DNA of 64,000 nt from NCBI GenBank assembly GCA_045542315.1, contig JAZQKU010000043.1, forward strand, positions 3,041 through 67,040. Reading direction: 5' to 3'. The stretch comes from Eubacteriales bacterium (lineage in GTDB: Bacteria; Bacillota; Clostridia; Oscillospirales; RGIG5299). The translations under genes were made by a program, and so were the position numbers. Positions 8,879 through 32,745 of the stretch are shown here, piece by piece. How positions within the stretch are numbered: the first letter of the stretch is position 1; every line of letters begins with the position of its first letter. The notes beneath the pieces were generated by a model, which searched no databases, was not told the origin of the DNA, and saw only the letters and a list, made by a program, of their open reading frames with translations.

Positions 8879-8960
8879 CGCCTTAATATTTCTTATTATA
8901 TTTTATCATAAAAAATGAGGCGTTGCAATATAAATATCAAGTTTCATCTTATTATCAAAA

Positions 8961-8990
8961 AATAAAAGCCGCATAAAGCGGCTTTTTATT
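8961..8990. terminator. bidirectional terminator downstream of mrp
   Basis: AGCCGC / GCGGCT stem flanked by A-run and T-run. Confidence 0.55.
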
Positions 8991-8996
8991 TTTCAA

Positions 8997-9836
8997 TTAT
9001 TCCTGCTCCCTCTTCGGGGTCTTTTCGATTGCGTCGGCAACGCATTCGAGCCAATCGCCCTCGAAAAGCTCAACGGCGCCTCTGTCTGCCGCGGCGGCAA
9101 GACGGGGGTCAATGGGCATTCTCGAGAATACGTCGATTCCGAAATCACGTGCGGTGTCGGCGATCTTCGACTTGCCGAAGATATCGTATTCCTTATCGCA
9201 ATCGGGACATTTGAAATAGCTCATATTTTCAACTATTGCCAAAACGGGAACGTTCATAAGCTTTGCCATTTTAACAGCCTTTGCAACGATCATCGAAACG
9301 AGCTCTGCGGGAGAGGTTACAATGACGATGCCGTCAACGGGAATAGACTGGAAAACGGTAAGCGGAACGTCACCGGTTCCGGGAGGCATATCCACAAACA
9401 TATAGTCAACGTCATCCCAGATAACGTCGGTCCAGAACTGCTTTACGGCGCCCGCGATAACGGGACCTCTCCAGACAACGGGGTCGGTATCGTCCTCAAG
9501 AAGCATGTTGACCGACATCATTTTAATTCCGGTCTTGCTTTTTCCCGCAAATATTCCGGTTGCGTCTGCCTCGGCCTTTTCCTTCACTCCGAACATTTTG
9601 GGAATGGAGGGACCGGTAACGTCGGCATCGAGAACTGCGGTGGAAAAGCCGCGACGCTGCATCGTTACGGCAAGAAGGGAGGAAACCATTGATTTACCTA
9701 CGCCGCCCTTGCCGCTGACTACACCGATAACCTTTTTGATGTTGGAGAGCTGATGGGGCTTTTCGATTAAACTTTGCTTTTCGCGGGAGGAGCAGTTTGA
9801 GCTGCAGGTCTCGCAGTTGTGTGTGCATTCGCTCAT
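8997..9836 (-). CDS. mrp: Mrp/NBP35 (ApbC) family iron-sulfur cluster carrier ATPase
   Basis: GKGGVGKS deviant Walker A motif and an N-terminal Cys-rich segment (CTHNCETCSSNC). Confidence 0.88.
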   Translation of the reverse strand: MSECTHNCETCSSNCSSREKQSLIEKPHQLSNIKKVIGVVSGKGGVGKSMVSSLLAVTMQRRGFSTAVLDADVTGPSIPKMFGVKEKAEADATGIFAGKSKTGIKMMSVNMLLEDDTDPVVWRGPVIAGAVKQFWTDVIWDDVDYMFVDMPPGTGDVPLTVFQSIPVDGIVIVTSPAELVSMIVAKAVKMAKLMNVPVLAIVENMSYFKCPDCDKEYDIFGKSKIADTARDFGIDVFSRMPIDPRLAAAADRGAVELFEGDWLECVADAIEKTPKREQE

Positions 9837-9857
9837 TTTATCATATCCTTTTTAAAA

Positions 9858-12257
9858 TTAAACTTTTTCGTTCATTTCGGCAATATCTGCCTGACGCATC
9901 TGTATCTCTGCCCATTCCGCCTTGGTGAGAAGCACCTGACGGGGCTTTGAACCCTCGGGAGGACCTACTATTCCGCGCTCCTCCATCTCGTCGATTATTC
10001 TTGCGGCTCTGCCGTAGCCGAGCTTCAAGCGGCGCTGAAGCATTGAGGTAGAGACGGTTCTTGCATCGATCGCTATTTCAATAGCGTCGTCTATCATCGG
10101 GTCGGAGTCGCCGTTTCCGCCGCCCTTGTCGCCCTTGCCCTTTTCGCGCTCCTCGACCTGCTTTTCTATCTCCTTCATAACGGCATCGTCGTAGTTTGCG
10201 GTGCCGTTTTCCTTTATAAAGGAGATGACGGCGGCGATGTCCTTATCGGGAATATAACAGCCCTGTGCGCGTATGCATTTATCCGAGCCCATCGGGTGAT
10301 AGAGCATATCGCCCTGTCCTATAAGCTTTTCGGCACCCGTCTGATCGAGAATAATGCCCGAGTCGATACGGCTTGCAACCGCAAAAGCTATTCTGGAGGG
10401 AATGTTGGTTTTTATAAGACCTGTGATAACGTCTGCCGAGGGACGCTGCGTTGCAACGATAAGATACATACCTGCGGCTCTTGCCTTTTGAGCAAGACGG
10501 CAGATAGAATCCTCAACCTCCTTGGGGGCAGTCATCATAAGGTCGTTAAGCTCGTCGATAACAATAACTATCTGGGGAAGCGGCTCAAGATCGGGGTCGG
10601 TTTCCGCCAAGGCGTTATATGAGAATATCTCTCTTACCGAGTTATCTGCAAATAGCTGATAGCGCTTTTGCATTTCGGCAACTGCCCAGCAAAGAGCGCC
10701 GGCCGCCTTTTTGGGGTCTGTAACAACGGGTATCATAAGGTGGGGAATGCCGTTGTAATCGGAAAGCTCAACCATCTTGGGGTCTATCATTATAAGCTTT
10801 ACCTTATCGGGCGAGGCCTTATAGATAAGCGAAACGATTATCGCGTTGATGCAGACCGATTTACCCGAGCCGGTTGCGCCCGCAATAAGAAGGTGAGGCA
10901 TCTTTGCAATATCCATAATTACCGAGCCGCCGCCTATATCCTTGCCGAGCGCGGCGGTAACGTAGCTTTTTGATTCGGAAAACTCACGGCTTGCAACTAT
11001 CTCGCGCATAAACACGGTGGTCTTGTTTTTATTGGGGACCTCAATGCCGATGGCAGCCTTACCGGGAATGGGAGCTTCGATTCTTACTCTGCTTGCGGCA
11101 AGTGCGAGGGCAAGGTCGTTTGAAAGGTTTGCTATCTTGCTTATCTTAACGCCCATACCGGGAACAAGCTCGAATCTCGTTATCGATGGACCTCTTGAAA
11201 CGTTTGTTATTCTCGTTTCAACGCCAAACGAGGCAAGAGTTGAAACGATTTTGTCCGCCATCTGGCGCATTTCGGCGGTGGCGTCGATATTTTCCGCATT
11301 GCCCTTGGTAAGAAGGGTAATGGGCGGGAAACGGTAGGGCTTTTCGGCAGGTCTTTCGGACTTTGCCGAGGCCTCGATCTCGTTTATCATCTTCGCCTTT
11401 TCCTCGGCGGTAACGGTTATCCTCTCGGTCTCCTCGGGAGAAACGGGGGAGGGAATTGAAATTTCGGGAATTTCCGTTTCGTCGGGCTCAAAGGGAGGTC
11501 TTTCCTCCGAAAGAGGAATATCGATAGCGCTTCGCTTTTTCCTTTTTTCTTTTTTGGGCTTTTCCTCTGGCTCGTCGATGGGAATGTCGATGTTGACGTC
11601 ACCTATCGGCATAGGCTTCCTTTTGGGAGGCTCCTCAGAAACGGGCTCCTCCTTCTTTGCTTCCTTTTTCGAGGCCTTTTTTGCCTTTATTTTATCCCAA
11701 AGCTTCGAAATTATAGCTGCAACCGAAATATCGAAATACAAAACGAGTGAAACCACTGCGGCAAAAATAAAGATGAGCGCCGAAAGCACCGCACCGATGC
11801 CGCTTGCGAGAGGATAGCCTAAAACTCCGCCTATAACGCCGCCCGAAAAGAGGCTTTTGTTAGAAACGTTAAAAAGGGAGGTGAGCATCGCGGAGAAGGT
11901 TGAGGCATCGATCCCATCTCTTGCAAAGAGAGAAAAGACCGCGGAGAGCGAGATGAACATTATCGCTCCCGAAACAAGCTTCACGGCGCGTCTTGCGGTT
12001 TTGGGGAATACCGCGTAAACGCCGCTTATTGCCATAATTACGGGCAAAAGGTAGGCGGGGAAGCCGAAAAGACCCAAAAGCACCGATCTTATCCACGCGC
12101 CTGCCGTGCCGATGTCGAAAAATAACACGGCTATAAAGGCAATGGCAAGGAAAAAGAGGGCAATGCCCGCTATCTGCGCGCCGAGATTTTTCTTCGGCGC
12201 CTCGGCGGCTTTCTTTTTCACGTTATTCATTTTCCGGGATTTTTTAGCTTTAGCCAT
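9858..12257 (-). CDS. ftsK: DNA translocase FtsK/SpoIIIE
   Basis: 799 aa with N-terminal TM helices, a K/E/P-rich linker, a motor domain ([13 protein letters not shown]) and a C-terminal gamma domain. Confidence 0.92.
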
Positions 12258-22980: not shown

Positions 22981-23009
22981 TTGACGGGTGGGGGGTAGCG
23001 TGTTATAAT
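22981..23009 (+). promoter_or_regulatory. sigma-A type promoter with extended -10
   Basis: TTGACG, 17 bp spacer, TGT-TATAAT. Confidence 0.55.
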
Positions 23010-23069
23010 GGAAATGGAGAGAAATGGTATCATTTTTCTTAAAATGCTTTTTCAAAGGAGGAAACCATT

Positions 23070-24131
23070 ATGAAAAAATTACTTACATTATTAACCGCGC
23101 TTATTTTGCTTTTCGGAATCACTGCCTGCACGGTAACGGAAAACAGTTCAAGTGAGCCTCCTGCATCGAGCGAGCCGCCCGCAAGCTCCGACGTTACCTC
23201 CTCCGAGCCGCCCGCAAGCTCTGTTGTTACGCCGAGCAATCTTCCCTTCGTTCCCGAAACGAATATGGGAGAATTCGGAAGAAGCGTTTGGGCTTTTGAT
23301 AATTGCACAAATGTTGTTTGGGAAAACGAAGAAGTGTATTTTATTTTTGAAAACACCGTTTTTTCACTTACAAAAAAGATATATAAAAGCGATAATGGGT
23401 TACTGTCCGATTTGCTTTTATTTGATGGATATCTTTATTTTGAAGAGGAAGTCGATGGGAACAGCTCCTTGGTAAAAATTAAAACAGACGGAAGCGATAA
23501 AACTGTTTTGTGCGAAAAAAGCGGATTTATTTATAATCTGTTTATTTATGAAGGATATTTGCATTATAAATATTCCGCAAGCAGCTATGACACTTGTCAT
23601 AAAATCAAATTAGACGGAAGCGAGCCTGAACAAAAAGCAAGCAACTTTTTCCCTTTGGGAAACGGTTGGATTTATAAGCCGGGAAAGATAGATGCCGATT
23701 TTCTCCATGGACCGGGACAGTTGATCTGTGGCGATGAAGTCTTTGAGGAAGACGATGTTTGTCCGAGGTGGCGATACGTTTTCTTCAAGGAAAACTTTTG
23801 CTATTATGACGGGGACTTGAATCAGTTTGTTTTTTACAACATAAGAAACACTGAAAACAAAACGGCCGTGGCAGTTTCGGATGTCTTGGTGCGCTCGCCG
23901 GGGTGGGAATTTTCATTTATCGGAAACTGGATTTTCTACATCAATAAAAACTTCGAGCTTTGCAAAATAGATATAGAAGGCAACGGCTACGAGGTGCTTA
24001 CAACGGAAAAGGTTACGCAATTCGAGGTCTGCGGAGAATGGATACTTTGCTTCACAACTCACGATTTTGTAACGAATAACGGCGTTAGCCTCGTTAAATA
24101 TGACGGCACCGAAAATAAATTTATCGGCTGA
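23070..24131 (+). CDS. lipoprotein with DUF5050-like beta-propeller
   Basis: Lipobox LLFGITAC, an SSEPPASS x3 linker, and repeated ...YLYF...LVKIKTDGSDKTVL / HKIKLDGSEPEQ blades. Confidence 0.65.
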   Translation: MKKLLTLLTALILLFGITACTVTENSSSEPPASSEPPASSDVTSSEPPASSVVTPSNLPFVPETNMGEFGRSVWAFDNCTNVVWENEEVYFIFENTVFSLTKKIYKSDNGLLSDLLLFDGYLYFEEEVDGNSSLVKIKTDGSDKTVLCEKSGFIYNLFIYEGYLHYKYSASSYDTCHKIKLDGSEPEQKASNFFPLGNGWIYKPGKIDADFLHGPGQLICGDEVFEEDDVCPRWRYVFFKENFCYYDGDLNQFVFYNIRNTENKTAVAVSDVLVRSPGWEFSFIGNWIFYINKNFELCKIDIEGNGYEVLTTEKVTQFEVCGEWILCFTTHDFVTNNGVSLVKYDGTENKFIG

Positions 24132-24135
24132 TAAA

Positions 24136-24171
24136 CCCCCCCCCGCCCCATTCGAGGCGGGGGTATTTTTT
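24136..24171 (+). terminator. rho-independent terminator
   Basis: CCCCCGCC / GGCGGGGG stem followed by TATTTTTT. Confidence 0.7.
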
Positions 24172-24260
24172 GCTTACCGCGGCGATTTTCACCTTCTTCC
24201 CTTCTTTTTCATATACTGAAAAAGACAGCGATGTCAGACCAAAAACAAAGGAGAAGGATA

Positions 24261-24611
24261 ATGGATTACAAAGCATTTTTCGAGAGCGACGATTACGCCT
24301 GCTCGAAAACGAAAAAGCAAGGCGCGGAAGCCGATGGCAACTTTTTTACCGCTGCTCCCGTCTTCAAGCCGATGACCGAGGCACAGCCGTCAAAAAATGA
24401 ATGCGGCCCCGTAAGATCGCCCGAAACAACGGCGCGGGTGACCCTTTCAATGGAGCTTGACAGAGAGGGTCTTCCTCTTGCGATAGCCTACGTTCCCATG
24501 CAGGCGTGGCGTGAAGTTTACGAGCCCGAAATTGCGATCACACGGGCAACTGTTTTTAAAGAGCTTGACAAGCCGTTTTGTTTAGAGGAGGCAAAAAACC
24601 GTGGACGATAG
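24261..24611 (+). CDS. cotJA: spore coat-associated protein CotJA
   Basis: LAIAYVPMQAWREVYEPEIAITRATVFKELDKPF matches the CotJA domain. ATG 24261 follows AAGGAGAAGG. Confidence 0.85.
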   Translation: MDYKAFFESDDYACSKTKKQGAEADGNFFTAAPVFKPMTEAQPSKNECGPVRSPETTARVTLSMELDREGLPLAIAYVPMQAWREVYEPEIAITRATVFKELDKPFCLEEAKNRGR

Positions 24612-24843
24612 AACCTTACTTACCCGAAAAATTATGGCTTACAGTATGGCGGCAGAGGATTCCCGCCTTTTTCTCGACACTCACCCCAACTGCGATGCGG
24701 CGCTCGATTACTACAATATGAGCCTTAAGAAAAAGATGGAATATTTAAAGGAATACGAGAGCACCTTCGGTGCGATGTCGCAATCGAGCGTTCAAAACGG
24801 CAGATATTCGTGGATAAGCACCCCCTGGCCGTGGCAGATATGA
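24601..24843 (+). CDS. cotJB: spore coat protein CotJB
   Basis: IMAYSMAAEDSRLFLDTHPNCDAALDYYN is the CotJB signature. GTG start follows GAGGAGG and overlaps cotJA by 11 nt. Confidence 0.85.
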   Translation: MDDRTLLTRKIMAYSMAAEDSRLFLDTHPNCDAALDYYNMSLKKKMEYLKEYESTFGAMSQSSVQNGRYSWISTPWPWQI

Positions 24844-24863
24844 GAGAAAGGAAGGTATTTTGA

Positions 24864-25061
24864 ATGTTTTTATATGAAAAAAGGCTCCAGTATCCCGTGA
24901 GAATAAAAAATCCGAATCCCAACACCGCAAAGCTCGTTATTTCGGCATTCGGAGGCCCCGACGGCGAGCTCGGCGCCTCGATGAGATATCTTTCACAGCG
25001 CTTTACCGCGTCGCAGGGCGAGGTGATCGGCACCCTTACCGACGTTGGTATTGAAGAATAA
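24864..25061 (+). pseudogene. cotJC: cotJC (Mn-catalase family spore coat protein), 5' fragment, interrupted after codon 62
   Basis: MFLYEKRLQYPVRIKNPNP...GELGASMRYLSQRF...TDVG, then IEE-stop read from the element sequence. Confidence 0.85.
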
Positions 25062-25072
25062 AATTGTTTATG
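25047..25072 (+). other. attL-like junction (GGTA core plus inner 16-bp arm)
   Basis: GGTA at 25047-25050 is shared with 30593-30596. The arm AATAAAATTGTTTATG at 25057-25072 matches 12/16 with the reverse complement of 30575-30590. Confidence 0.6.
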
Positions 25073-25079
25073 ATATAAT
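25051..25079 (+). promoter_or_regulatory. element-borne promoter reading into the small ORF and recombinase
   Basis: TTGAAG (the first 6 nt of the element), 17 bp spacer, TGA-TATAAT extended -10 (25071-25079). Confidence 0.4.
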
Positions 25080-25101
25080 AGTAACACAAGGAGGGGTTAC
25101 T

Positions 25102-25431
25102 ATGAGTTATTACAATTATAGACACAACATAAAAACTAGATTAAAACACTTCTGTCGCAACAACTTGACGAAAGAACAAGCACAAAGTTTGCTATTGTTC
25201 TTTATGGATAACAAAGAGTTATTTTCCCGTTTATGCCAAGCATACAATGAATATAAAGTAAGTTGTGGCAGGGAGTATTTATGTGTGATAACCAATTTAG
25301 ATGCTTTGTTTAAAAACACCGAAGCAGAAGAAGCGTTCATAAAGGAAATTAAAACTTACATAATGGACGTAATTGGTATCAAAAGAGAGGATGTTGAAAA
25401 TGGCACAGATACAGATAATAGAGCCGAATAA
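25102..25431 (+). CDS. small hypothetical protein upstream of the recombinase (candidate directionality factor)
   Basis: 109 aa, AAGGAGGGG RBS, overlaps the recombinase start by 32 nt. No family recognised. Confidence 0.55.
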   Translation: MSYYNYRHNIKTRLKHFCRNNLTKEQAQSLLLFFMDNKELFSRLCQAYNEYKVSCGREYLCVITNLDALFKNTEAEEAFIKEIKTYIMDVIGIKREDVENGTDTDNRAE

Positions 25432-27145
25432 AACAACCCTCAAAACTGACGACAACAAACCGCATAGGGTCTGCGCGTACTGCCGTGTATCGACAGACGA
25501 TACCGACCAAAAGAACTCTCTTGTGGCACAAAAGCAATTTTTCGCAAGGTATTTTAATCTTCATTCAAATTGGACTAATGTTGGCATATTTGCAGATGAA
25601 GGCCTTTCGGGAACCTCTCTTGAAAAAAGAGATGATTTCAACCGAATGTTATTTGAAGCCAGACACGGAAACATTGACATTATTCTTACAAAGGAAGTTT
25701 CCCGTTTTTCCCGTAATGTTCAGCATCTCTTGAATATCGTTGAAGAATTACGGAACAAGGGTGTTTATATTTGGTTTTTGTCTGACGACATAAACACCGA
25801 GAAACATGACTATCGAGAGAAATTGACACAGATAGCAACCAATGCCGAACAAGAGAGTTTAAGAACTTCTCGCCGTGTTCGTTGGGGGCAGCAACAACAA
25901 ATGCAACTCGGTGTCATTTTCGGTCGTAAAGAAATGTACGGGTATAATATCGTCAAGGATGACAACGGCATACAACATTTTGAAATCATACCCGAAGAAG
26001 CCGAAGTCATTAAAAAGATTTTTGAGTGGTTCGCAAGTGGCGAGGGTACTCACCGAATTAGCAGACGATTAGAGCAACAAGGTATCACTACCAAGCAATA
26101 TAAAAACGGGTGGAGTAATACTGTAATTCTTCGCATATTGCGGAACGAAAAATATGTGGGCGACTTGGCACAGGGCAAAACCTACACCCCCGACCCACTC
26201 ACCCACAAAAAGAAATACAACACGGGGCAATCATACCGATTTTATATAACCGACCACCACCCCGAAAGTGCTATTATTGACCGAGATTTATGGAACAAGG
26301 TGCGAACGATTTTAGAAGAAAAAGCACCGAGCGAAGAAATTAAGGCAAAGCACTCAAACCGCTATTGGACAAGCGGCAAGGTGTATTGTGGTTTATGTGG
26401 TGGCAGATATGTCAGTTATGTGAAGAAACAAAAGAACACCCCTTATCGTGCTTGGGTGTGCTTTGAAAATCACCAAAGGGGCAATTACAAGCAAATAACA
26501 CTTGATACGGGCGATACTGCACTTGTGGGTTGTAATGCTCTGCGAGTAAATGACAGAGTGCTAAAAACGGCAGTTCACGATATTATTACTGCATATATCA
26601 TCCCTTATAGAGAAACTTTGCTCAACGAAATGAAAAAGGAAATTGCCGAACTGTCAAAACCCAAAGACAATACCAAGCAGATAGAAAAACTACAAACGGC
26701 ACTTGAAAAGAAGCAAGGCGAAATCTCAAAGCTCACTTTGGGTTGGTCGGGTGGCTCGGTGCCTGATATTGCCTATTATTCAAGCATAGGGACACTTAAC
26801 AAGCAATATGAAGATTTACAAACACAACTCCGTAAAATGCAAGAACAAGGCAATTCTGCGAGTGCAGAGATACAAATATATACCGAGTATATAGAACAGC
26901 TTGAGTCTGTGCTCTCTCTTTCCGAGAACGACTTAAACGAGGCATTTTACGAAAGGGTTACAAAGCAGATTTTTGTTTATCCCCTTAATCTGTTGGAGTT
27001 TCGTTTGTCATTTATCCCAATGCCGATTTATATGCAATATAAGACATCAGGCAGAGGCGACGATTACACGGCAGAGTTCACTATCCTATCAAAAGAACAG
27101 TTTGCAGAACTGCTTGAAACTGCACCTAAAAACGAAATTGACTAA
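25400..27145 (+). CDS. large serine recombinase (SpoIVCA/SprA/TndX-like)
   Basis: YCRVSTDD catalytic Ser motif, resolvase core (LTKEVSRFSRN), recombinase domain, zinc ribbon (CGLCGGRY...WVCFENH) and a C-terminal coiled coil. Confidence 0.9.
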   Translation: MAQIQIIEPNKTTLKTDDNKPHRVCAYCRVSTDDTDQKNSLVAQKQFFARYFNLHSNWTNVGIFADEGLSGTSLEKRDDFNRMLFEARHGNIDIILTKEVSRFSRNVQHLLNIVEELRNKGVYIWFLSDDINTEKHDYREKLTQIATNAEQESLRTSRRVRWGQQQQMQLGVIFGRKEMYGYNIVKDDNGIQHFEIIPEEAEVIKKIFEWFASGEGTHRISRRLEQQGITTKQYKNGWSNTVILRILRNEKYVGDLAQGKTYTPDPLTHKKKYNTGQSYRFYITDHHPESAIIDRDLWNKVRTILEEKAPSEEIKAKHSNRYWTSGKVYCGLCGGRYVSYVKKQKNTPYRAWVCFENHQRGNYKQITLDTGDTALVGCNALRVNDRVLKTAVHDIITAYIIPYRETLLNEMKKEIAELSKPKDNTKQIEKLQTALEKKQGEISKLTLGWSGGSVPDIAYYSSIGTLNKQYEDLQTQLRKMQEQGNSASAEIQIYTEYIEQLESVLSLSENDLNEAFYERVTKQIFVYPLNLLEFRLSFIPMPIYMQYKTSGRGDDYTAEFTILSKEQFAELLETAPKNEID

Positions 27146-27151
27146 CTGAAA

Positions 27152-27180
27152 TTGTTTTTTGAATCGGATTATGATATAAT
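27152..27180 (+). promoter_or_regulatory. extended -10 promoter of the phosphorylase gene
   Basis: TTGTTT, 17 bp spacer, TGA-TATAAT. It shares the 13-mer TTATGATATAATA with 25068-25080. Confidence 0.4.
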
Positions 27181-27225
27181 ACAACTAACTGATAAATAAG
27201 AATTTGTGCCTTGGAGGAAATTTGT

Positions 27226-27984
27226 ATGTGGTTTTATAGGGATGATATAACAAGACCTACAATTTCTGCTGAAGAACAAGTTGAGTCTTCGCATGGAAAA
27301 AAGGATGCTTTTGTGCTTCCAAAAACAGTAGTACTGTTATATATGAGCGGCATTGAGTTTATAAAAGAACGATATGATGTTGAACTAATAACGGAACGTT
27401 TCCCAAGATTTCTTAATGCTTGCCCTATTTATAAGATTAAAGGACACAATGATATTTGCTTCTTAGATGGTGGAAGAGGTGCTCCACAAGCGGCAGATAC
27501 ATTGGAAACTTTGAAAGCATTAGGCATTGAGAATGTTGTTTCAGTAGGGATGATTGGTGGTTATTCAAGTTTAATTAATGTAGGAGATATTATCATTCCA
27601 CCACTTGCATATTCCGAAGAAGGTACGTCTCTACATTATTTTGAAAATGAAGAATATTATAAGCCTAATGAAAAACTATTTAAAGCGGCAGTTGGGTTTG
27701 TTGAAAATTGCAAACAACATTCAATTGTATCAACAGATGCGGTATATCGACAAACATTTTATAAAGAAGCACTATGGAGAAAAAAAGGTGCAGTAGGTGT
27801 TGATATGGAAACATCTGCATTATTTAGTGTTGGAAATTATTTGGATTTAAACGTAGTTGCTTTGTTAATGGTATCTGATATTCATCCTTTAGATGAGAAC
27901 GAAAATAAATGGTCGTGGAAAATGACCAAAGAAATGAGAAAAGAAGTTATTTATAAGGCGATTGATTTTGCTTTATCTATTTAG
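27226..27984 (+). CDS. PNP/UDP family 1 nucleoside phosphorylase-like protein
   Basis: GGRGAPQAADTLETLKALGIENVVSVGMIGG, INVGDIII, EGTSLHY and GVDMETSALF parallel the uridine/purine nucleoside phosphorylase motifs. Very AT-rich codon usage. Confidence 0.8.
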   Translation: MWFYRDDITRPTISAEEQVESSHGKKDAFVLPKTVVLLYMSGIEFIKERYDVELITERFPRFLNACPIYKIKGHNDICFLDGGRGAPQAADTLETLKALGIENVVSVGMIGGYSSLINVGDIIIPPLAYSEEGTSLHYFENEEYYKPNEKLFKAAVGFVENCKQHSIVSTDAVYRQTFYKEALWRKKGAVGVDMETSALFSVGNYLDLNVVALLMVSDIHPLDENENKWSWKMTKEMRKEVIYKAIDFALSI

Positions 27985-28018
27985 GATAGATAAATTCCAA
28001 TTTGTCGCTCTCTTATAA

Positions 28019-28091
28019 TAAACAAAACACCTTATGACTGTGGTCATAGGGTGTTTTGTTTATGATGGCGGGACCCTTTTGGGTCCCGGCT
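28019..28091 (+). terminator. two tandem hairpin terminators
   Basis: AACAAAACACCTTATGAC / GTCATAGGGTGTTTTGTT, then CGGGACCC-TTTT-GGGTCCCG followed by TAATTTTA. Confidence 0.65.
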
Positions 28092-28410
28092 AATTTTATA
28101 CCTTTTCTTGATTTTTATTTAAAACATTGTCATGCTATATTTGTATTCAATAATACAATGAAGGAGCAATATTAGAGAAAAAATGAAGGAGGAATATTTT
28201 ATATCTTTGAAAATCACACACAAGAAAACACACACATTAAACCCCAATCATGTGTTGTGTGCCAATGCTTGACTGTAAACGACCTCAAAGGCACACTTCC
28301 CATGATGTTCAATCGTAAAATCGTTGTATCGGGCGATTTTGGTTGAACACCCCAACCGACACGATAAGGTCGGTTTATCGGCGGTAGTTCCTATCGCTGT
28401 TTTGGGATAG

Positions 28411-28700
28411 CGGAGCGACGGCACCGTTATCTTTTATCTGAACAGTTAAACGATACATATATTATTTTTTAGGGTGTCGGTCAATGGGTCGGCACCTTAA
28501 AAATTACATAAATTATGTCGCCATTAACGGCGCGACGTTTACGATCGCGACGACAATGGCGACAAATACCACGAAAGGAGCGACAAAACAATGTCAAAAT
28601 CGTTATTCTATCAATTTAACTCTGCTTTGGACATGTGCTTTGTTTTGCATTTTGACAAGCATAGCGACAAGCACAACCCACAAGCAGATAGCGACCACAT
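28411..28700. repeat. cluster of about 8 GCGAC-core motifs around the tyrosine recombinase start
   Basis: GAGCGACGG, GTCGCC (rc), GGCGCGACG, ATCGCGACGAC, TGGCGACAA, AGCGACAA, TAGCGACAA and TAGCGACCA all fall within 290 bp. Confidence 0.45.
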
Positions 28701-29478
28701 AATAAAATCGTTGTCGGCAAAGAGCAACCTCAAAGACTTTGCTCACGACTTCGTCGCATTTATTAAAAACGAATATGGGGTCAAGCAAGTAAAGGAAATT
28801 ACCCCCGATATGTGCCAATCGTATATAGAGCGAAAAGTAGATGAGGGTTGTTCTTTGAAAACGATTAAGACCTACCAAAGCAATCTGCTCAAACTGTCAA
28901 AGTGTGCAAACAAAGCCTTCAACATTCGCACCGACTATGCGGTGTCGGTTGACGAAAGCAAGATTGAGAAAACCGAGACGATAAAGCAATACTCTTTCAC
29001 CCGTGAGGAAATGCAAAAGATACTCGCAGCCCCTCGTCAATGCGAAAGTCTGTCGGCACTACGGCTGGCATACGATTTGGGGCTTCGTGTCGGGTCTCTG
29101 TCCCGTTTAGAGGTTCGACACATAAACTTTCAAGATAATACCTTACTTGTCTACAAGGACAAAGGGAATAGGTCCAGAGTGCTACAAATGAACGACGAGA
29201 CCGCAAAGTTTCTCCGTCAGCAAATAAAGGGCAAAGACCCCCAAAGCAAGGTTTTCTCGGTGAAACCGTCAAGCATCAACACATATTTGCGGAGACGATG
29301 CACCGCCCTCAATCTCCGCGCCCCGAATGGCGAAATAAAGTCGGGGGTGCACTCAATCCGCAAGTTATGGGCAGAGGAGTTTGCCGAAAAAAACGGGGTC
29401 GCAAAAACGATGGTCGCACTCGGTCACGGGGAGCAAAGGAGCGATTTGGAGCAGACCTACCTGCATAGCAAAAAATAA
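28591..29478 (+). CDS. tyrosine-type site-specific recombinase/integrase
   Basis: C-terminal catalytic pattern: LGLRVGSL (R), HSIRKLWA (HxxR), LGHGEQRSDLEQTYL (H...Y). Confidence 0.8.
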   Translation: MSKSLFYQFNSALDMCFVLHFDKHSDKHNPQADSDHIIKSLSAKSNLKDFAHDFVAFIKNEYGVKQVKEITPDMCQSYIERKVDEGCSLKTIKTYQSNLLKLSKCANKAFNIRTDYAVSVDESKIEKTETIKQYSFTREEMQKILAAPRQCESLSALRLAYDLGLRVGSLSRLEVRHINFQDNTLLVYKDKGNRSRVLQMNDETAKFLRQQIKGKDPQSKVFSVKPSSINTYLRRRCTALNLRAPNGEIKSGVHSIRKLWAEEFAEKNGVAKTMVALGHGEQRSDLEQTYLHSKK

Positions 29479-29529
29479 TTTTAAAATTTTTTGAAAAAGG
29501 GGTCAAAAATACTTGCAATTTAATTTTTT

Positions 29530-29775
29530 ATAAGTTATATAGTTATATATACTTAACTTTTAGGTATTATAGGTATATAACTTTTTTAGGTTATATAGAT
29601 ATTAACTTACATAAGTTAGTAGGTAAAACACTTACTTATAAGGTTTATAGTTAAATCGCTTACATAAAGGTACATAGGCAGATTACTTTGAAAAGGTTTT
29701 AGTTATAACCCTTATTAAAGGTGTTTGTGTAGATATATAACTTAAATGGGTTGAGAAGTTAGATACTTTACAACG
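29530..29775 (+). repeat. AT-rich iteron-like direct repeat array
   Basis: Eight AGGT-initiated units (29562, 29571, 29588, 29621, 29641, 29668, 29694, 29719). Most carry AGTTA/TAACTTA-like second boxes. A palindrome AACTTA-CA-TAAGTT sits at 29604-29617. Confidence 0.6.
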
Positions 29776-29842
29776 GATAATGAATATACTCCTTTTGATT
29801 AGAAAAGTTTAAGTAAATAAACAAAAAGGAGTGTAAGTTTCA

Positions 29843-30193
29843 ATGCTTTCACAAAAACTAAACAATCTTTATGAAAATTATTTTTTAGGTGGTTACATTT
29901 CAAACTTGATTGATAACCCCAACAAACCCTATCTTTCTATCGCCATGAAGTCATATGACAAGGACAAGAGCAAAACTGTCTTTATTATGATTTTCAAAAT
30001 GTCGGGGTATGGCGATAGCAAATACCCGAACCCGACGGCACAAATCGTCAAAGATGCCTTTGAGAAACATATCCCCATTTCCTGTGTCTATTACGATGAC
30101 GGCAAAGGCGGAAACAAAATGTCCTGCTGCTATGCGAACTTCTCGGCAGATAAATATGCCGAAGTTCCCGTTGCCGACGAAATGCCGTTTTAA
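29843..30193 (+). CDS. hypothetical protein, possibly a divergent SSB-like OB-fold protein
   Basis: 116 aa. The C-terminus ...VADEMPF resembles the acidic D-D-D-I/L-P-F SSB tip, and the N-terminal LGGYISNLIDNPNKPYLSIAM pattern resembles an OB fold. This is a weak assignment. Confidence 0.35.
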   Translation: MLSQKLNNLYENYFLGGYISNLIDNPNKPYLSIAMKSYDKDKSKTVFIMIFKMSGYGDSKYPNPTAQIVKDAFEKHIPISCVYYDDGKGGNKMSCCYANFSADKYAEVPVADEMPF

Positions 30194-30206
30194 CGGGGGT
30201 ATGGAT

Positions 30207-30521
30207 ATGAATAAAAACAGATTTGACTTTGCCATATTAAACTGCCGTGAAATCGGCACTCATTTTGAAGGCAATCGCTATTGTTTTACTAGGCTTCCCG
30301 AATTAGAAATAGTTTCGTTTGCCAACTTCAAGTACGAAGACTACAAGCAAATAAACCAAGCATTAGAGGACGATACCTATACACATATATTTTATTCCAT
30401 TGATGACGATAGGTTGCATACAGATAAGTATGACGAATACCGAGACAGAACATATCCCGTATATTATATTGATAGAGACCACTTTGATAAATATTGGAAA
30501 CCCCAAATATTAGAAGGCTAA
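30207..30521 (+). CDS. hypothetical protein
   Basis: 104 aa. ATG 30207 follows GGGGG. No family recognised. Confidence 0.5.
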   Translation: MNKNRFDFAILNCREIGTHFEGNRYCFTRLPELEIVSFANFKYEDYKQINQALEDDTYTHIFYSIDDDRLHTDKYDEYRDRTYPVYYIDRDHFDKYWKPQILEG

Positions 30522-30530
30522 CCAAAGAAA

Positions 30531-30565
30531 GACTGTGCATTGTTGCACAGCCTTTTATTATTTTA
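30531..30565 (+). terminator. rho-independent terminator just inside the right end of the element
   Basis: CTGTGCA-TTGT-TGCACAG stem followed by CCTTTTATTATTTT. Confidence 0.6.
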
Positions 30566-30574
30566 CTATATGCA

Positions 30575-30596
30575 CAATAAAAATCTTATTTAGGTA
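30575..30596 (+). other. attR-like junction (inner 16-bp arm plus GGTA core)
   Basis: CAATAAAAATCTTATT (30575-30590), then TA, then GGTA (30593-30596). cotJC codons resume at ACC 30596-30598. Confidence 0.6.
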
Positions 30597-31015
30597 CCGA
30601 GGAGCTCGGACATATTGAGATGGTAAGCAGCATCGTTTATCAGCTCACCCGCGGGCTTACTCCCGAGGAGATCAAGAAAAGCGGCTTTGACGCCTATTTT
30701 ATAGAGCATACCACGGGAATTTACCCGGTGGCGGCTTCGGGCGAGCCGTTTAACGCAGTGGGATTCCAATCAACCGGTGACATTATCGCCGACCTCCACG
30801 AGGATATGGCGGCGGAGCAGAAGGCGCGAAAGAGCTACGATAACCTTATTACCCTTATCGACGATCCCGACGTGCTTGACCCCCTCAAATATCTTCGCGA
30901 GCGCGAGATAGTGCATTTCCAGCGCTTCGGCGAGGCGCTTCGGGTGGTCGAGGAGGGCTTGAACCCCAAAAATTTTTATTACACAAATCCCTCGTTCCCT
31001 ACCAAGAGAATGTGA
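30597..31015 (+). pseudogene. cotJC: cotJC 3' fragment (about 140 aa)
   Basis: The frame reads (G)TEELGHIEMVSSIVYQLTRGLTPEE...DLHEDMAAEQKARKSYDNL...LREREIVHFQRFGEAL, which are Mn-catalase/CotJC motifs. It is in frame with the 5' fragment when 25049 is joined to 30596. Confidence 0.85.
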
Positions 31016-31030
31016 AAAAGAAAACCCGCC

Positions 31031-31056
31031 CGTTACGGGCGGTTTTCGATTTATAT
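31031..31056. terminator. bidirectional terminator after cotJC
   Basis: CCGCCCG-TTA-CGGGCGG stem flanked by AAAA and TTTT. Confidence 0.6.
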
Positions 31057-32745
31057 TGACTTTAGAAAATCCCCGTAAACCCTCGTAAGCTCTCCCATGA
31101 TAAGCGAGTTATCCTTAAGAAGCGGGATATACCACAAAAGGAAAAGGACAAAGAGCACCGCAACCGGCAAAAGACATTTGAGCGCCTTTATGGCGTGCGA
31201 TCTCAGTGAGGGGATGTTAAGACGAAGATCGGCAAGCGAATAGAATGCAAAAACGCCGTAAACTATAGCAAACCACGGAAGCAGGTAGCGGCTTTCCATT
31301 TTTGTAAGACAGGAGACGGCACCCGAGAGCACTATTGCCAAAACGGGAACGAGGGTGAAAAAGTTGTGACGTGCGCGCTCGCGCTTTCCCTTGGTTTTGA
31401 AAAATTTGAAAACGGCGCTGGAAACGGTGACCACAAAGCAGGAAATCATAAAGATACTCAATGCCGCGCGCTCGAAAAAGCCGGTAGTGAGGTCGGTAAC
31501 GTAGCTTTCGCCGTAGGTCGCGACCATTCCGAGAAATGCGGAGTTAAGCCACGATTCGATATACCATTTCGGGTGACTGAGAACGGAGCTGAAATAGCTT
31601 TCGTAGTCAAAGCATTTTTCGTAGCCCTCGAAGGGGGAGTTGGGATATACGGCGGCGTAGATCTCGTGGGTGTTGAAGTCACGTACCCAGAAATCGACCT
31701 TGAGCATTGTGGCAAGGCCGTGGGCGTTAAAAAGCACCAAGGGGTATTCGACCCCTTCGGCCGCAAGCGGATAGGTCTGGGTCTGCACCTGCCAATCGCT
31801 TTTGTTAAGATGCGCCCTGTTTATTATTACCTGCGGTATCATTATCAAAACGACGCCGAGGATAACGGCAGATATCTTGAGAGCCTTTCTTGCTCCGTTT
31901 AAAACTATTCTGAAAACGGGCTTCAGGCTACTTATTTTATCGGGTATTTTTTTGAAAAATCCCCTCGTAATGCCGAAAAAGGAGTGGACCTCGCGGGTTG
32001 CAAATATCTTTAACGCCGTCATTGCTATCATTGCAAAAAGGAAGATGAGATAGATCTGGCGGAGATTATAGGCCGCCGCGGCGGAGAGGCCAACGAGAAA
32101 AGCCGATAAAAGACGGAAACGTCCGTCGTCCATCTTGAAATATGCGGTAAGCGATATAAAGATAAAGCAAAGGGCGGGAATATCGGTCAACGGGTGAGCA
32201 AAGTCGCCGCCGAAGAAGATCAAGAGAAGCAAGATAAATACTCCGAGAGAGAGGAAGGAAAACCTTTTCTTGAATGCTTTGCAAAAGACGTAGGGAGCAA
32301 CGAAGGTAAAGATTACCGCCGAGAAAAGTGCGTAGCTGAAATAATAGGCGGAAACGGGGTCGATAAAGCCCAAAAAATCGGTTGCAAAGCGCACGAAAAG
32401 AAAGACTGTAAAGGAGGCGAGGTAGCCTCTTGCATAGGAGGTGTAGTGAGCAAAGGAAAAGACCTTATCGGTGTTTACAAACACCTTGGCGCTGTTCCAA
32501 TATCCGTGTGCGTCGCCCGTAAACTGCGGGGGACGGTGGGCGTTCATCGTGGCGTAGATCGCGTAAAAGACCGCGAAAAAGAAAAGTATTTTAAGCAAAA
32601 GCTCAAAAATACCCTTGCCCGTCTCTCTTTCGGAAAGCGGACTTTCGGATCTGTCTTTGAATAATCTCAAAGCAGCTGAAAACGGCTTGCCGACGGCTTC
32701 GAAAATACCGTCACGCAATTTTGAGAACGTCGCGGAAAAGAACAT
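31051..32745 (-). CDS. large polytopic membrane protein (possible GT-C type glycosyltransferase)
   Basis: 564 aa and at least 12 TM helices. The function is a guess from architecture only. Confidence 0.4.
   Translation of the reverse strand: MFFSATFSKLRDGIFEAVGKPFSAALRLFKDRSESPLSERETGKGIFELLLKILFFFAVFYAIYATMNAHRPPQFTGDAHGYWNSAKVFVNTDKVFSFAHYTSYARGYLASFTVFLFVRFATDFLGFIDPVSAYYFSYALFSAVIFTFVAPYVFCKAFKKRFSFLSLGVFILLLLIFFGGDFAHPLTDIPALCFIFISLTAYFKMDDGRFRLLSAFLVGLSAAAAYNLRQIYLIFLFAMIAMTALKIFATREVHSFFGITRGFFKKIPDKISSLKPVFRIVLNGARKALKISAVILGVVLIMIPQVIINRAHLNKSDWQVQTQTYPLAAEGVEYPLVLFNAHGLATMLKVDFWVRDFNTHEIYAAVYPNSPFEGYEKCFDYESYFSSVLSHPKWYIESWLNSAFLGMVATYGESYVTDLTTGFFERAALSIFMISCFVVTVSSAVFKFFKTKGKRERARHNFFTLVPVLAIVLSGAVSCLTKMESRYLLPWFAIVYGVFAFYSLADLRLNIPSLRSHAIKALKCLLPVAVLFVLFLLWYIPLLKDNSLIMGELTRVYGDFLKSI

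Follow-up and report, generated by a model that had tools for sequence, protein, structure and literature searches.

Bacillus cereus ATCC 10987 carries gin, a non-phage element that splits the small mother-cell gene gerE and encodes a large serine recombinase (LSR) together with a small accessory protein without known motif; its insertion breaks the reading frame and its excision restores it (PMC5595907). The element described here, which lies in cotJC, resembles gin in each of these respects, the restoration of cotJC being an in silico result. The two differ in target and in scale, as gin spans 28.6 kb and has three serine recombinases whereas the cotJC element has one LSR in 5.5 kb; GirX of gin is 42 aa long and encoded apart from girC (PMC5595907), whereas the 109-aa ORF of the cotJC element overlaps the LSR start, and relatives of the cotJC element often carry a relaxase. 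Excision of gin during sporulation has been demonstrated and in vitro data suggest its possible movement between species (PMC5595907), whereas for the cotJC element such excision is plausible.

LSR-mediated precise excision also restores the genes split by skin in sigK (SpoIVCA in B. subtilis; CD1231 with the recombination directionality factor (RDF) CD1234 in C. difficile; PMC5025042) and by SPbeta in spsM (SprA/SprB; PMC4191935, PMC5499854), to both of which the likeness of the cotJC element is one read from its DNA. There, the recombinase may be constitutive while a second factor sets the timing (PMC5025042, PMC4191935, PMC5499854). Both elements are prophage-derived, 14.6-134 kb in size, and have mapped sporulation-specific promoters (PMC5025042, PMC4191935, PMC5499854), in contrast to the cotJC element, in which no phage genes were detected. 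A preceding sequence-only reading of this locus had compared it to skin, SPbeta, vfbin and gin, and the comparison holds in part, namely for the LSR beside an att site, the mother-cell-type target gene and an insertion that does not restore a gene.

Tn4451 and Tn4453 are clostridial mobilisable transposons that encode the LSR TnpX and the Mob/Pre relaxase TnpZ. Like them, the cotJC family belongs to the ~6 kb size class, has a terminal LSR and, in many relatives, a Mob_Pre relaxase, lives in clostridia and is expected to form a circular intermediate. TnpX elements can use many GA-containing insertion sites and work without an RDF. Unlike them, the cotJC family strictly uses one codon with a GG crossover, and the copy described here has no relaxase.

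As an intervening-element target, cotJC has been listed before (Abe 2013, as cited in the available part of 10.1101/2021.11.22.469490), and an interrupted cotJC was mentioned in Laceyella sacchari (10.1101/2022.02.25.481979). As far as the available parts of these two in silico sources go, they agree with the present analysis in target gene and in basic idea, but in one line each and for Bacilli, where the insertions are phage- or transposon-related or skin-like. The sequence-only reading could not tell whether a cotJC-resident element of this composition had been described. Within the same limits, the target was known; beyond the one-line mentions, and with Abe 2013 represented by the paper citing it, we found no account in the literature of such a composition or family, its crossover site, recombinase family, small element type or spread in Clostridia. 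A large family of small elements at one spot of cotJC across gut Clostridia is thus apparently undescribed.

Reconstruction of cotJC and contents of the element

In the window (the whole stretch of DNA analysed, 64,000 nucleotides), cotJA and cotJB are followed by a cotJC gene that is intact to codon 62 (...TLTDVG) and then reads IEE-stop (Table 1). The true start of cotJA is likely the ATG at 24262, 3' of GGAGAAGG. The cotJC frame picks up again at 30596, reading TEELGHIEMVSS, and continues to the stop at 31015 on the forward strand; the sequence-only reading had placed it correctly, and its estimate of about 140 aa needs only a small correction to 139 residues. The 5,546-bp insert between the two halves has a GC content of 38.2%, compared with 47-49% in the flanks, in agreement with the AT-richness noted earlier. 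Joining 24864-25049 to 30596-31015 gave an in-frame ORF of 606 nt and 201 aa that recreates the ligand motif TD(V)G-TEE-x-x-H, as had been predicted. Aligning the joined product to CotJC and to Mn_catalase had been proposed as a check: residues 1-182 were colinear with positions 1-196 of the Pfam profile (E 4.2e-51), and alignment to Mn catalases of solved structure covered the protein from one end to the other. The host gene therefore encodes a Mn_catalase fold with Glu/His ligand motifs 3' of cotJA and cotJB; the numbering of the manganese ligands (Glu35, Glu66, His69 and Glu148) is that of the L. plantarum enzyme.

Empty sites, as anticipated, were found in related genomes. An uninterrupted CotJC of 202 aa (P0001, in genome L001) is 97% identical to the joined CotJC, the DNA alignment of L001 to the window stops at 25045 and restarts at 30593, precisely where the junction lies, and the same 90% cluster contains further intact alleles (P0274, P0278). 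Precise excision in silico thus restores an intact ORF close to its uninterrupted orthologue. The exact joined protein has no entry in protein records, and the 65-aa product of the 5' fragment has an exact match there, deposited from the source contig itself. In the integrated state, cotJC is cut two to three residues ahead of the Glu-Glu-x-x-His manganese ligands and therefore yields the 65-aa stub only. If expression in B. subtilis can be carried over, the insert lies inside a mother-cell-expressed sporulation gene.

Table 1. Features of the cotJ operon and the inserted element (positions in the window)
Feature	Position	Strand	Basis
Candidate mother-cell-type cotJ promoter	24191..24217	+	AC-17 nt-CATATACT, read from sequence
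cotJA	24231..24611	+	Pfam CotJA, E 3.8e-14
cotJB	24601..24843	+	Pfam CotJB, E 3.4e-23
cotJC 5' fragment	24864..25061	+	Host codons 1-62 to 25049, then element-derived IEE-stop
attL	25022..25075 (approximate)	+	Crossover GG at 25047-25048; junction comparison, ~60 loci; dyad-symmetry centre
SigmaA-like promoter TTGAAG-17-TG-TATAAT	25051..25079	+	10/12 matches with TG; among the top-scoring sites of the scan
109-aa ORF (ORF109)	25102..25431	+	Overlaps LSR start; family-specific accessory protein
LSR, 581 aa	25400..27145	+	Pfam Resolvase 9.6e-28, Recombinase 4.4e-22, Zn_ribbon_recom 1.8e-5
PNP_UDP_1 (nucleoside phosphorylase/nucleosidase) cargo gene	27211..27984	+	Pfam 2.6e-21; NCBIfam sub-threshold only
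24-bp-arm hairpin, then terminator-like stem-loop	28015..28088	+	Sequence scan
Tyrosine recombinase-like gene, 295 aa	28591..29478	+	Pfam Phage_integrase 4.9e-16; PHROG integrase 5.9e-26
AT-rich region, 26% GC	29526..29654	.	Three ~21-nt direct repeats, 52-56 nt spacing
116-aa ORF	29843..30193	+	No family match
106-aa ORF	30201..30521	+	Internal ATG of 170-aa ORF listed at 30009; no family match
Terminator-like hairpin, right end of element	30533..30550	+	Scan
attR	30566..30620 (approximate)	+	Crossover GG at 30593-30594
cotJC 3' fragment	30596..31015	+	Codons 63-201 and stop
Terminator 3' of cotJC	31026..31042	+	Terminator scan

The element encodes ORF109, the LSR, a nucleoside-phosphorylase-family protein, a tyrosine recombinase and two small ORFs. 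As the sequence-only reading had stated, the LSR operon lies at the left end of the insert, co-oriented with cotJ, and the LSR gene adjoins the att site, starting ~350 bp from attL. At 581 aa, against 538-598 aa in relatives, the LSR is of complete length and retains its three domains; it is 100% identical to P0121. The nearest match of its catalytic domain is 3g13 (3e-29), a 'conjugative transposon recombinase', and a distant one is TnpX (2mhc, 6e-8). ORF109 has no Pfam or NCBIfam match, no convincing PHROG or PADLOC match and no detectable similarity to known RDFs, and its AF2 model is of low confidence. It has 33 close homologues, of which those examined lie directly 5' of an LSR; the window protein has their modal length, and a motif, LITNPDALF...YI.DV, is kept in both orientation classes. 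We infer that ORF109 is a candidate RDF.

The PNP_UDP_1 gene, which has no PADLOC match, is missing from the closest relatives and therefore occupies a variable slot, filled by a NUDIX gene in L088. The module at 27992-29480, with the tyrosine recombinase, recurs at ~80% identity in L009, L010 and L014, and the AT-rich repeats are possibly iterons or an origin. No phage structural, packaging or lysis genes were found in the window element, the PHROG matches being integrase matches to the tyrosine recombinase only; together with the plasmid- or IME-type cargo of the relatives, this led us to reject a prophage or defective prophage. Relaxase families were not detected in the element, nor T4SS-related families among its five non-LSR ORFs (Pfam and NCBIfam in both cases). 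It thus has an integration/excision module of its own and lacks conjugation pore genes, as an IME does; of the relaxase and/or oriT that an IME also has, no relaxase was detected, and an oriT may lie at the hairpins at 28015-28066 and 28516-28564.

Crossover site and relatives of the element

attL (25047-25050) and attR (30593-30596) have GGTA in common; the extent of the att sites, about +/-25 bp, was taken from general knowledge of LSR att sites. Across ~60 loci, attL junctions invariably read GG-T, the T being contributed by the element, and attR junctions read GGT/C/A/G, where the final base is the wobble base of the host. Immediately 5' of GG, attL varies and nearly every attR junction has A. 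Such natural variation, as far as junction comparison can pin it, places the crossover on the GG of codon Gly62. The dyad-symmetry centre coincides with the GG in 28 of 35 reconstructed attP sites; the attP centre is GG in 7/7 co-oriented elements and CC in 14/14 inverted ones, with the P' arm unchanged. Both att arms of the window copy agree with the family consensus.

We collected 80 LSR relatives (37-97% identity) from species-representative genomes. Split cotJC fragments flank 73 of them, and all mapped junctions fall at one cotJC codon; these observations and the distant TnpX likeness led us to reject a Tn4451-type TnpX transposon. The elements are 3.3-9.3 kb in size, carry a Mob_Pre relaxase in 17 of 31 complete relatives and have ArdC, DUF3987, Rep or primase genes as other cargo; the rejoined cotJC is full length in about 28 of 31 distinct loci. 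LSRs with 97% identity (L008-L010, L014) occur in hosts whose CotJC shares only 49-68% identity with that of the window, LSR genes 90-94% identical in DNA were found in unrelated hosts, and one identical ORF109 protein recurs in at least five host contexts. Comparison across hosts thereby shows a family that is mobile between species and not phage-like. About two thirds of close relatives are antisense to cotJ; after dereplication, the count is 24 of the 31 that were typed.

Further insertions revealed at least four crossover sites in cotJC (at about residues 27-33, 62, 65/66 and 133-136), three of the four lying at metal-ligand motifs. Two to three of these sites serve LSRs that are unrelated or very distant, several can be filled simultaneously, and within a single host lineage the site is empty, holds the element of the window or holds two other elements. 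It is tempting, if rather doubtful, to speculate that cotJC in Clostridia is a convergently evolved landing pad for small elements driven by recombinases, in which a GG to CC flip would set orientation, co-oriented copies would borrow the cotJ promoter and inverted copies would use a sigmaK/E-like promoter of their own in the small ORF.

Transcription, proposed excision and alternative explanations

The candidate cotJ promoter, which we presume to be of the sigmaK/sigmaE type by the B. subtilis consensus, occupies an identical position in L001. An AC-N15-18-CATAnnnT motif precedes cotJA at 31 of 47 loci, compared with 5 of 47 when the reverse strand is scanned and 5.9+/-2.2 when the sequences are shuffled. 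No terminator was found by the scan between cotJB and the LSR in the window, and no sporulation-type promoter is evident directly before its recombinase operon, which begins 40 bp 3' of the cotJC stub. As this ORF109-LSR operon is co-oriented with cotJ and no terminator intervenes, transcripts from the sigmaK/E-like cotJ promoter should extend into it when cotJC is needed. Read-through is not the general mechanism in the family, because 24 of the 31 typed close relatives are antisense to cotJ. In the antisense relatives, AC-N15-18-CATAnnnT occurs ~170-180 nt 5' of the LSR in 12 of 24 (versus 2.5+/-1.5), but it falls in conserved small-ORF codons and may instead reflect protein constraint; of this motif, the window copy has just the CATACAAT box (25241-25248). 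The P' arm at the att site contains the sigmaA-like promoter, whose position is largely conserved in both orientation classes.

We slightly favour the explanation that the insert (~25049-30594) is a site-specific integrative element of a cotJC-targeting family, excised by its LSR and boosted in the mother cell in this copy. The target of the LSR would be the DNA that codes for TD(I/V)G|TEE-x-x-H, a conserved motif of CotJC, with integration by crossover on the GG of codon Gly62; exact reversal there would give full-length cotJC, and neither the gene halves nor the att arms, LSR or small ORF show damage. Excision would probably be aided by the 109-aa protein as directionality factor, with GirC and GirX of gin as an experimental precedent for an LSR and small RDF in a non-phage sporulation-gene element (PMC5595907). 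In the mother cell, read-through from cotJ would boost excision of the window copy, the sigmaA-like promoter would otherwise provide basal, possibly self-repressed expression, and the forespore chromosome would retain the element. Excision during spore formation is plausible, and the comparative data fit equally well a small integrative, often mobilizable element. A search for attP junctions found none in collections from which the element itself is absent.

The latter could be all there is to the locus: a plain integrative, mostly mobilizable element for which cotJC is a conserved, dispensable safe harbour that is inactivated, with low-frequency excision in any cell type and no developmental role. 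We regard this as a realistic possibility, short of an even chance. The relaxases and plasmid- or IME-type cargo of the relatives, an LSR catalytic domain nearest to conjugative-transposon and TnpX-type recombinases, the conserved sigmaA-like promoter, the frequency of both orientations and the rapid turnover within one host lineage all speak for it. Loss of CotJC homologues in B. subtilis and C. difficile gives mild phenotypes, and in C. difficile they are functionally redundant (PMC11222575); permanent disruption may therefore be tolerated. Against it, the multiple crossover sites in one small gene suggest selection for the gene rather than for one sequence, and all experimentally studied elements that split mother-cell sporulation genes excise there (PMC5595907, PMC4191935). 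The rejoined genes are also nearly always intact, although recent insertion could equally account for this.

An immobile remnant fixed in the lineage, with cotJC as a permanent pseudogene, would agree with the missing relaxase of the window copy and with the lack of a circular form in the collections searched, which do not contain the element, but is improbable given the complete LSR and ORF109, consensus att arms, open cotJC halves with 97% identity to the intact orthologue and LSR genes 90-94% identical in DNA in unrelated hosts. That the split is an assembly artefact or chimeric contig has nothing in its favour beyond the metagenome-type assembly of the window and merits next to no credence; it is effectively refuted by dozens of assemblies, independent of one another and made by different projects, that show the same architecture and junction sequence.

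For annotation, these findings mean that split cotJC genes in MAGs of gut Clostridia should not be labelled pseudogenes. The family constitutes a natural experiment on the rules of serine integrases, in which wobble variation locates the crossover to within 2 bp and the choice of GG or CC sets the orientation; it also supplies orthogonal integrases for a target that is defined and highly conserved. Should excision prove to be coupled to sporulation, no gene-restoring developmental rearrangement in spore formers would be more compact than that of the 5.5-kb element, and its family would comprise the smallest known developmentally excised elements, linking conjugative mobilisation to the sporulation programme; with a single recombinase, a single small partner protein and a pair of ~50-bp sites, the element would then offer a convenient system for studying how mobile elements couple to a host differentiation programme.

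Split cotJC gene and empty sites in relatives

The sequence-only reading had described a cotJC gene that breaks off and resumes in the same frame 5,546 bp downstream, and every detail of this was borne out by the ORF map, the raw sequence and the GC content. The neighbouring genes matched the Pfam families CotJA (E 3.8e-14) and CotJB (E 3.4e-23). The cotJC 5' ORF (24864-25061) reads MFLYEKRLQYPV...TLTDVG and then IEE-stop, and the frame picks up again at 30596 with TEELGHIEMVSS... and stops at 31015. Joining 24864-25049 to 30596-31015 in silico gave 606 nt, in frame and encoding 201 aa. The expected colinear alignment of this product with Mn_catalase was also obtained, as a single match of residues 1-182 to Pfam positions 1-196 (E 4.2e-51), and the solved manganese catalases 6j42 and 1jku aligned with it from end to end. 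The GC content of the insert is 38.2%, versus 47-49% in the flanks. The ORF map, the joined frame, the Mn_catalase match and the GC contrast thus confirm the original observation, and the split gene with its recombinase element is real.

Empty cotJC sites, which that reading proposed to look for in relatives, do exist. Searching proteins with the joined product gave P0001, an uninterrupted CotJC protein of 202 aa with 97% identity, on contig L001 of a related genome, where cotJA-cotJB-cotJC is present. L001 is 78-86% identical to the window DNA in an alignment that ends at 25045 and restarts at 30593. In a side-by-side comparison, GGTA is common to the left and right element ends (attL and attR), and L001 reads ...GACGTCGGCACCGAAGAG... 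there. Two more intact alleles (P0274 and P0278) belong to the same 90% protein cluster, which also includes the two CotJC fragments of the window and a differently split allele (P0275 plus P0276). Different elements were seen as well. L099, a locus from the same genus (8324-10060; DNA 80-87% identical), has a syntenic cotJC with a larger element of >10 kb carrying SLT, HTH and SMC-like genes; its large serine recombinase (LSR) of 531 aa is not detected by tblastn with the window LSR, and its junction lies ~9 bp more 3', after TEE. The protein P0280 (66 aa) equals the window's cotJC stub through DVG and continues as ISFC, pointing to a third type of element within the same species.

Features of the element and of its right flank (window coordinates)
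Feature	Position	Remarks
ORF109, 109-aa ORF	25102-25431	no family match
Large serine recombinase, 581 aa	25400-27145	Resolvase, Recombinase and Zn_ribbon_recom domains
PNP_UDP_1-family gene	27211-27984	directly after LSR
Tyrosine recombinase-like gene		right of PNP_UDP_1 gene
Two small ORFs		right of tyrosine recombinase-like gene; no matches
SigmaA-like promoter TTGAAG-17-TG-TATAAT	25051-25079	immediately 3' of crossover
Terminator-like hairpin	28069-28088	
Terminator-like hairpin	30533-30550	right end of element
Terminator-like hairpin	31026-31042	3' of cotJC

The catalytic domain of the LSR is nearest to the 'conjugative transposon recombinase' 3g13 (3e-29), and TnpX (2mhc) also matched. 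The window element contains neither phage-type genes (PHROGs matched the integrase only) nor a relaxase, megablast with the element found no match among PLSDB plasmids, and Rfam at a permissive threshold gave none across 24000-31300. The slot after the LSR is variable, with PNP_UDP_1 in the window and a NUDIX gene in L088 (2249-2779), a locus whose element is otherwise near-identical; both genes are of nucleotide metabolism. This slot might be a defence or counter-defence cargo site, although PADLOC returned no defence-system match for the PNP-family gene, the tyrosine recombinase and the small ORFs. At 29500-29840, a stretch of 26% GC holds three ~21-nt direct repeats spaced by 52-56 nt, with inverted repeats nearby, and may represent iterons, an origin or an oriT. 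Two hairpins (28015-28066, 24-nt arms; 28516-28564, 20-nt arms) lie in a ~500-bp non-coding stretch 5' of the tyrosine recombinase, which is ~80% conserved in the related loci L009, L010 and L014 and has no Rfam match. Outside the element, the gene 5' of cotJ (23070-24131) encodes a putative lipoprotein of 353 aa with PASSEPPASS repeats; it lies within a patch of 37-40% GC (23000-24000) and has a strong terminator at its end (24140-24163).

A recombinase family in cotJC

The LSR has many relatives with 60-100% identity. Two of these (89% and 77%) show the gene order of the window, one with a cotJA-cotJB-cotJC stub, small ORF, LSR, cargo and the cotJC 3' part, the other as an inverted element, i.e., antisense to cotJ. 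We then searched one genome per GTDB species with the family alignment. Among the best 80 LSR loci (37-97% identity), 73 have cotJC fragments by tblastn with the joined CotJC, with breaks at residues 59-66, and every mapped junction across these relatives falls at the same cotJC codon; three of the seven loci lacking fragments are contigs of <2.5 kb. The hosts are uncultured Acutalibacteraceae, Faecousia, Oscillospiraceae, Lachnospiraceae, Ruminococcus, Peptococcaceae and others, mostly from animal gut, and include two isolates (Bacterium 1XD8-76 and Caldicoprobacter algeriensis TH7C1). Both ends are present in 34 loci, giving element sizes of 3.3-9.3 kb, and in ~28 of 31 distinct complete loci in-silico rejoining restored a full-length cotJC (190-208 aa) with TD(I/V)GTEEL(A/G)H intact. 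Cargo clustering and Pfam placed a Mob_Pre relaxase in 17 of the 31 elements; ArdC, DUF3987, Rep_OBD with a helicase, a CHC2 primase finger and HTH proteins were further cargo in relatives. By this cargo profile, the members resemble small integrative elements, for the most part mobilizable, and not prophages.

In four related loci (L008-L010 and L014) the LSRs are 97% identical to that of the window and the recombinase-module DNA 90-94%, while the CotJC proteins of these hosts share only 49-68% identity with the window's. At least five different host neighbourhoods have one identical ORF109 protein (P0257) following a cotJC stub. The closest relatives have two modules in common with the window, that of the recombinase and that of the tyrosine recombinase (27992-29480, ~80%), and lack the PNP gene. 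The element is almost certainly active now, or was so very recently.

In close-clade elements of either orientation, ORF109 lies directly 5' of the LSR, overlaps it and has a conserved C-terminal motif; the distant clade (~40% LSR identity) has a different small ORF at the same position. We found no similarity of ORF109 to known proteins, and an AlphaFold model based on 18 homologues was helical and unreliable (pLDDT 53.5). By position and precedent only, ORF109 is a candidate recombination directionality factor. Such factors, GirX of the gin element among them, have no common fold (PMC5595907; PMC11795197).

Crossover dinucleotide and orientation

We compared ~60 junctions, all written in the cotJC reading direction. 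The attL sites almost always read GG-T followed by element sequence, and the attR sites read GGT, GGC, GGA or GGG followed by ACN; therefore the base 3' of GG belongs to the element in attL and to the host, as the Gly wobble base, in attR. On the 5' side of GG, attL has a base that depends on the host codon, and attR has A at almost all junctions. As the bases flanking GG switch source between attL and attR, strand exchange takes place within GG. Large serine recombinases use a 2-bp crossover; in the window, the junction sequences put it at the GG of 25047-25048 and 30593-30594. Independently of this comparison, dyad symmetry in the reconstructed attP sites (the excised-circle junction) was best centred on GG in 28 of 35. 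For the window, the in-silico attB junction (the empty site) joins GACGTTGG to TACCGAGGAG, and the attP junction joins CTTATTTAGG to TATTGAAGAAT. Exact and degenerate attP patterns had no match in IMG/VR and JGI metagenome contigs, a result that carries no weight since the attL control in IMG/VR was equally matchless.

Written along the LSR gene, attP has a P' arm (tattgaagaataaaattgtttatgatataat, with the promoter inside) that is common to all close-clade elements. Its centre is GG in all seven co-oriented elements, the window's included, and CC in all 14 inverted ones. In phiC31 and Bxb1, the asymmetric central dinucleotide alone sets polarity. The GG and CC centres of the reconstructed sites fit this rule and account for a single family using one site in either direction. 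In the distant clade, attP forms a near-perfect palindrome around the same GG, and the LSR sits at the opposite element end. A palindromic TA centre in GGTACC had also been considered as the source of the two orientations. This was rejected, because inverted elements read ...CAATAGGTACC... and not ...CAATACC..., and because the wobble bases show exchange at GG.

Two further insertion sites were seen in cotJC. One lies in the FGGPDGE region (about residues 27-33; loci L095 1326-2890, L070 3714-8577, L048 7256-7366 and L067 11679-11780). In L095 a cotJC piece starting at about residue 27 comes right after the end of another serine recombinase (476 aa), so that this cotJC is cut twice; in L070, 4.7 kb with an LSR of only 26% identity separates residues 1-33 from 30-64. 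The other lies at about residues 133-136, in the AAEQKA region (L038 4453-9647, L071 11653-11886 and L082 4777-5010), which aligns with the Mn catalase ligand Glu148. Residues 58-136 and 133-201 are separated in L038 by 4.7 kb with a distant LSR (26% identity), and the 3' fragments of L071 and L082 likewise end at residue 136.

Possible sporulation control and coexistence with the host

Upstream of cotJA, the window carries AC-17-CATATACT (24191-24217), which fits both the sigmaK consensus of B. subtilis and the sigmaE -10 consensus. Of 47 distinct loci, 31 have the pattern AC-N15-18-CATAnnnT no more than 400 nt 5' of the CotJA domain, whereas the opposite strand has it in 5 of 47 and 500 shuffles gave 5.9 ± 2.2 (maximum 15). 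By this enrichment, the cotJ operons of these hosts look like mother-cell genes. In the window, the ORF109-LSR operon begins 40 bp after the cotJC stub in the same orientation with no terminator between them (none was found from cotJB to the end of the PNP gene), an arrangement in which cotJ transcription should read into the recombinase operon. Such read-through cannot be a general rule, because 24 of 31 typed close relatives are inverted after dereplication.

Directly 5' of ORF109 in the window, inspection by eye found no sporulation-type promoter, only the sigmaA-like site. Among inverted elements, 12 of 24 have a sigmaK/E-like pattern within the small ORF, 168-183 nt 5' of the LSR start (expected 2.5 ± 1.5; reverse strand 4), at a density of 0.54 per 330 nt versus 0.04 in the LSR body; it occurs in one of seven co-oriented elements, a contrast between orientation classes that is not statistically significant. 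In 10 of the 12 members examined, the -10 part, CATA(C/T)AAT, falls on conserved (A/S)-Y-N codons of the small ORF; with AC 15-18 nt upstream, this box makes up the motif in many inverted elements. Constraint on the protein could therefore also explain it, and we treat the motif as a lead, not as evidence. The window has a CATACAAT box at 25241-25248, without AC at the right spacing.

Developmentally excised elements have been described in sigK, spsM, spoVFB, spoVR, gerE and yabG. For cotJC, a skin-like element in Laceyella sacchari is mentioned in a single sentence (10.1101/2022.02.25.481979), and another preprint counts the gene among 'frequently used' integration genes, crediting Abe et al. 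2013 (10.1101/2021.11.22.469490). In the literature, with Abe et al. 2013 represented by that citation, we found no description of the cotJC family, of where it crosses over or of how widely it occurs in Clostridia, and the supplements of Mageeney et al. 2020 have no catalase or cotJC entry. The element belongs to the known class of LSR elements interrupting sporulation genes, in a target mentioned before in passing; compared with that class it is unusual in being very small and related to mobilizable elements. How it coexists with its host can be read in two ways. Judged from sequence, excision in the mother cell is the most likely mode, at slightly better than even chances, and a plain safe-harbour reading, with cotJC simply serving as an insertion site, is a serious rival. 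Beyond the original finding, the interest of the family lies in its strict codon specificity at every mapped junction, in the switch of polarity between GG and CC, and in one gene having several hot spots.
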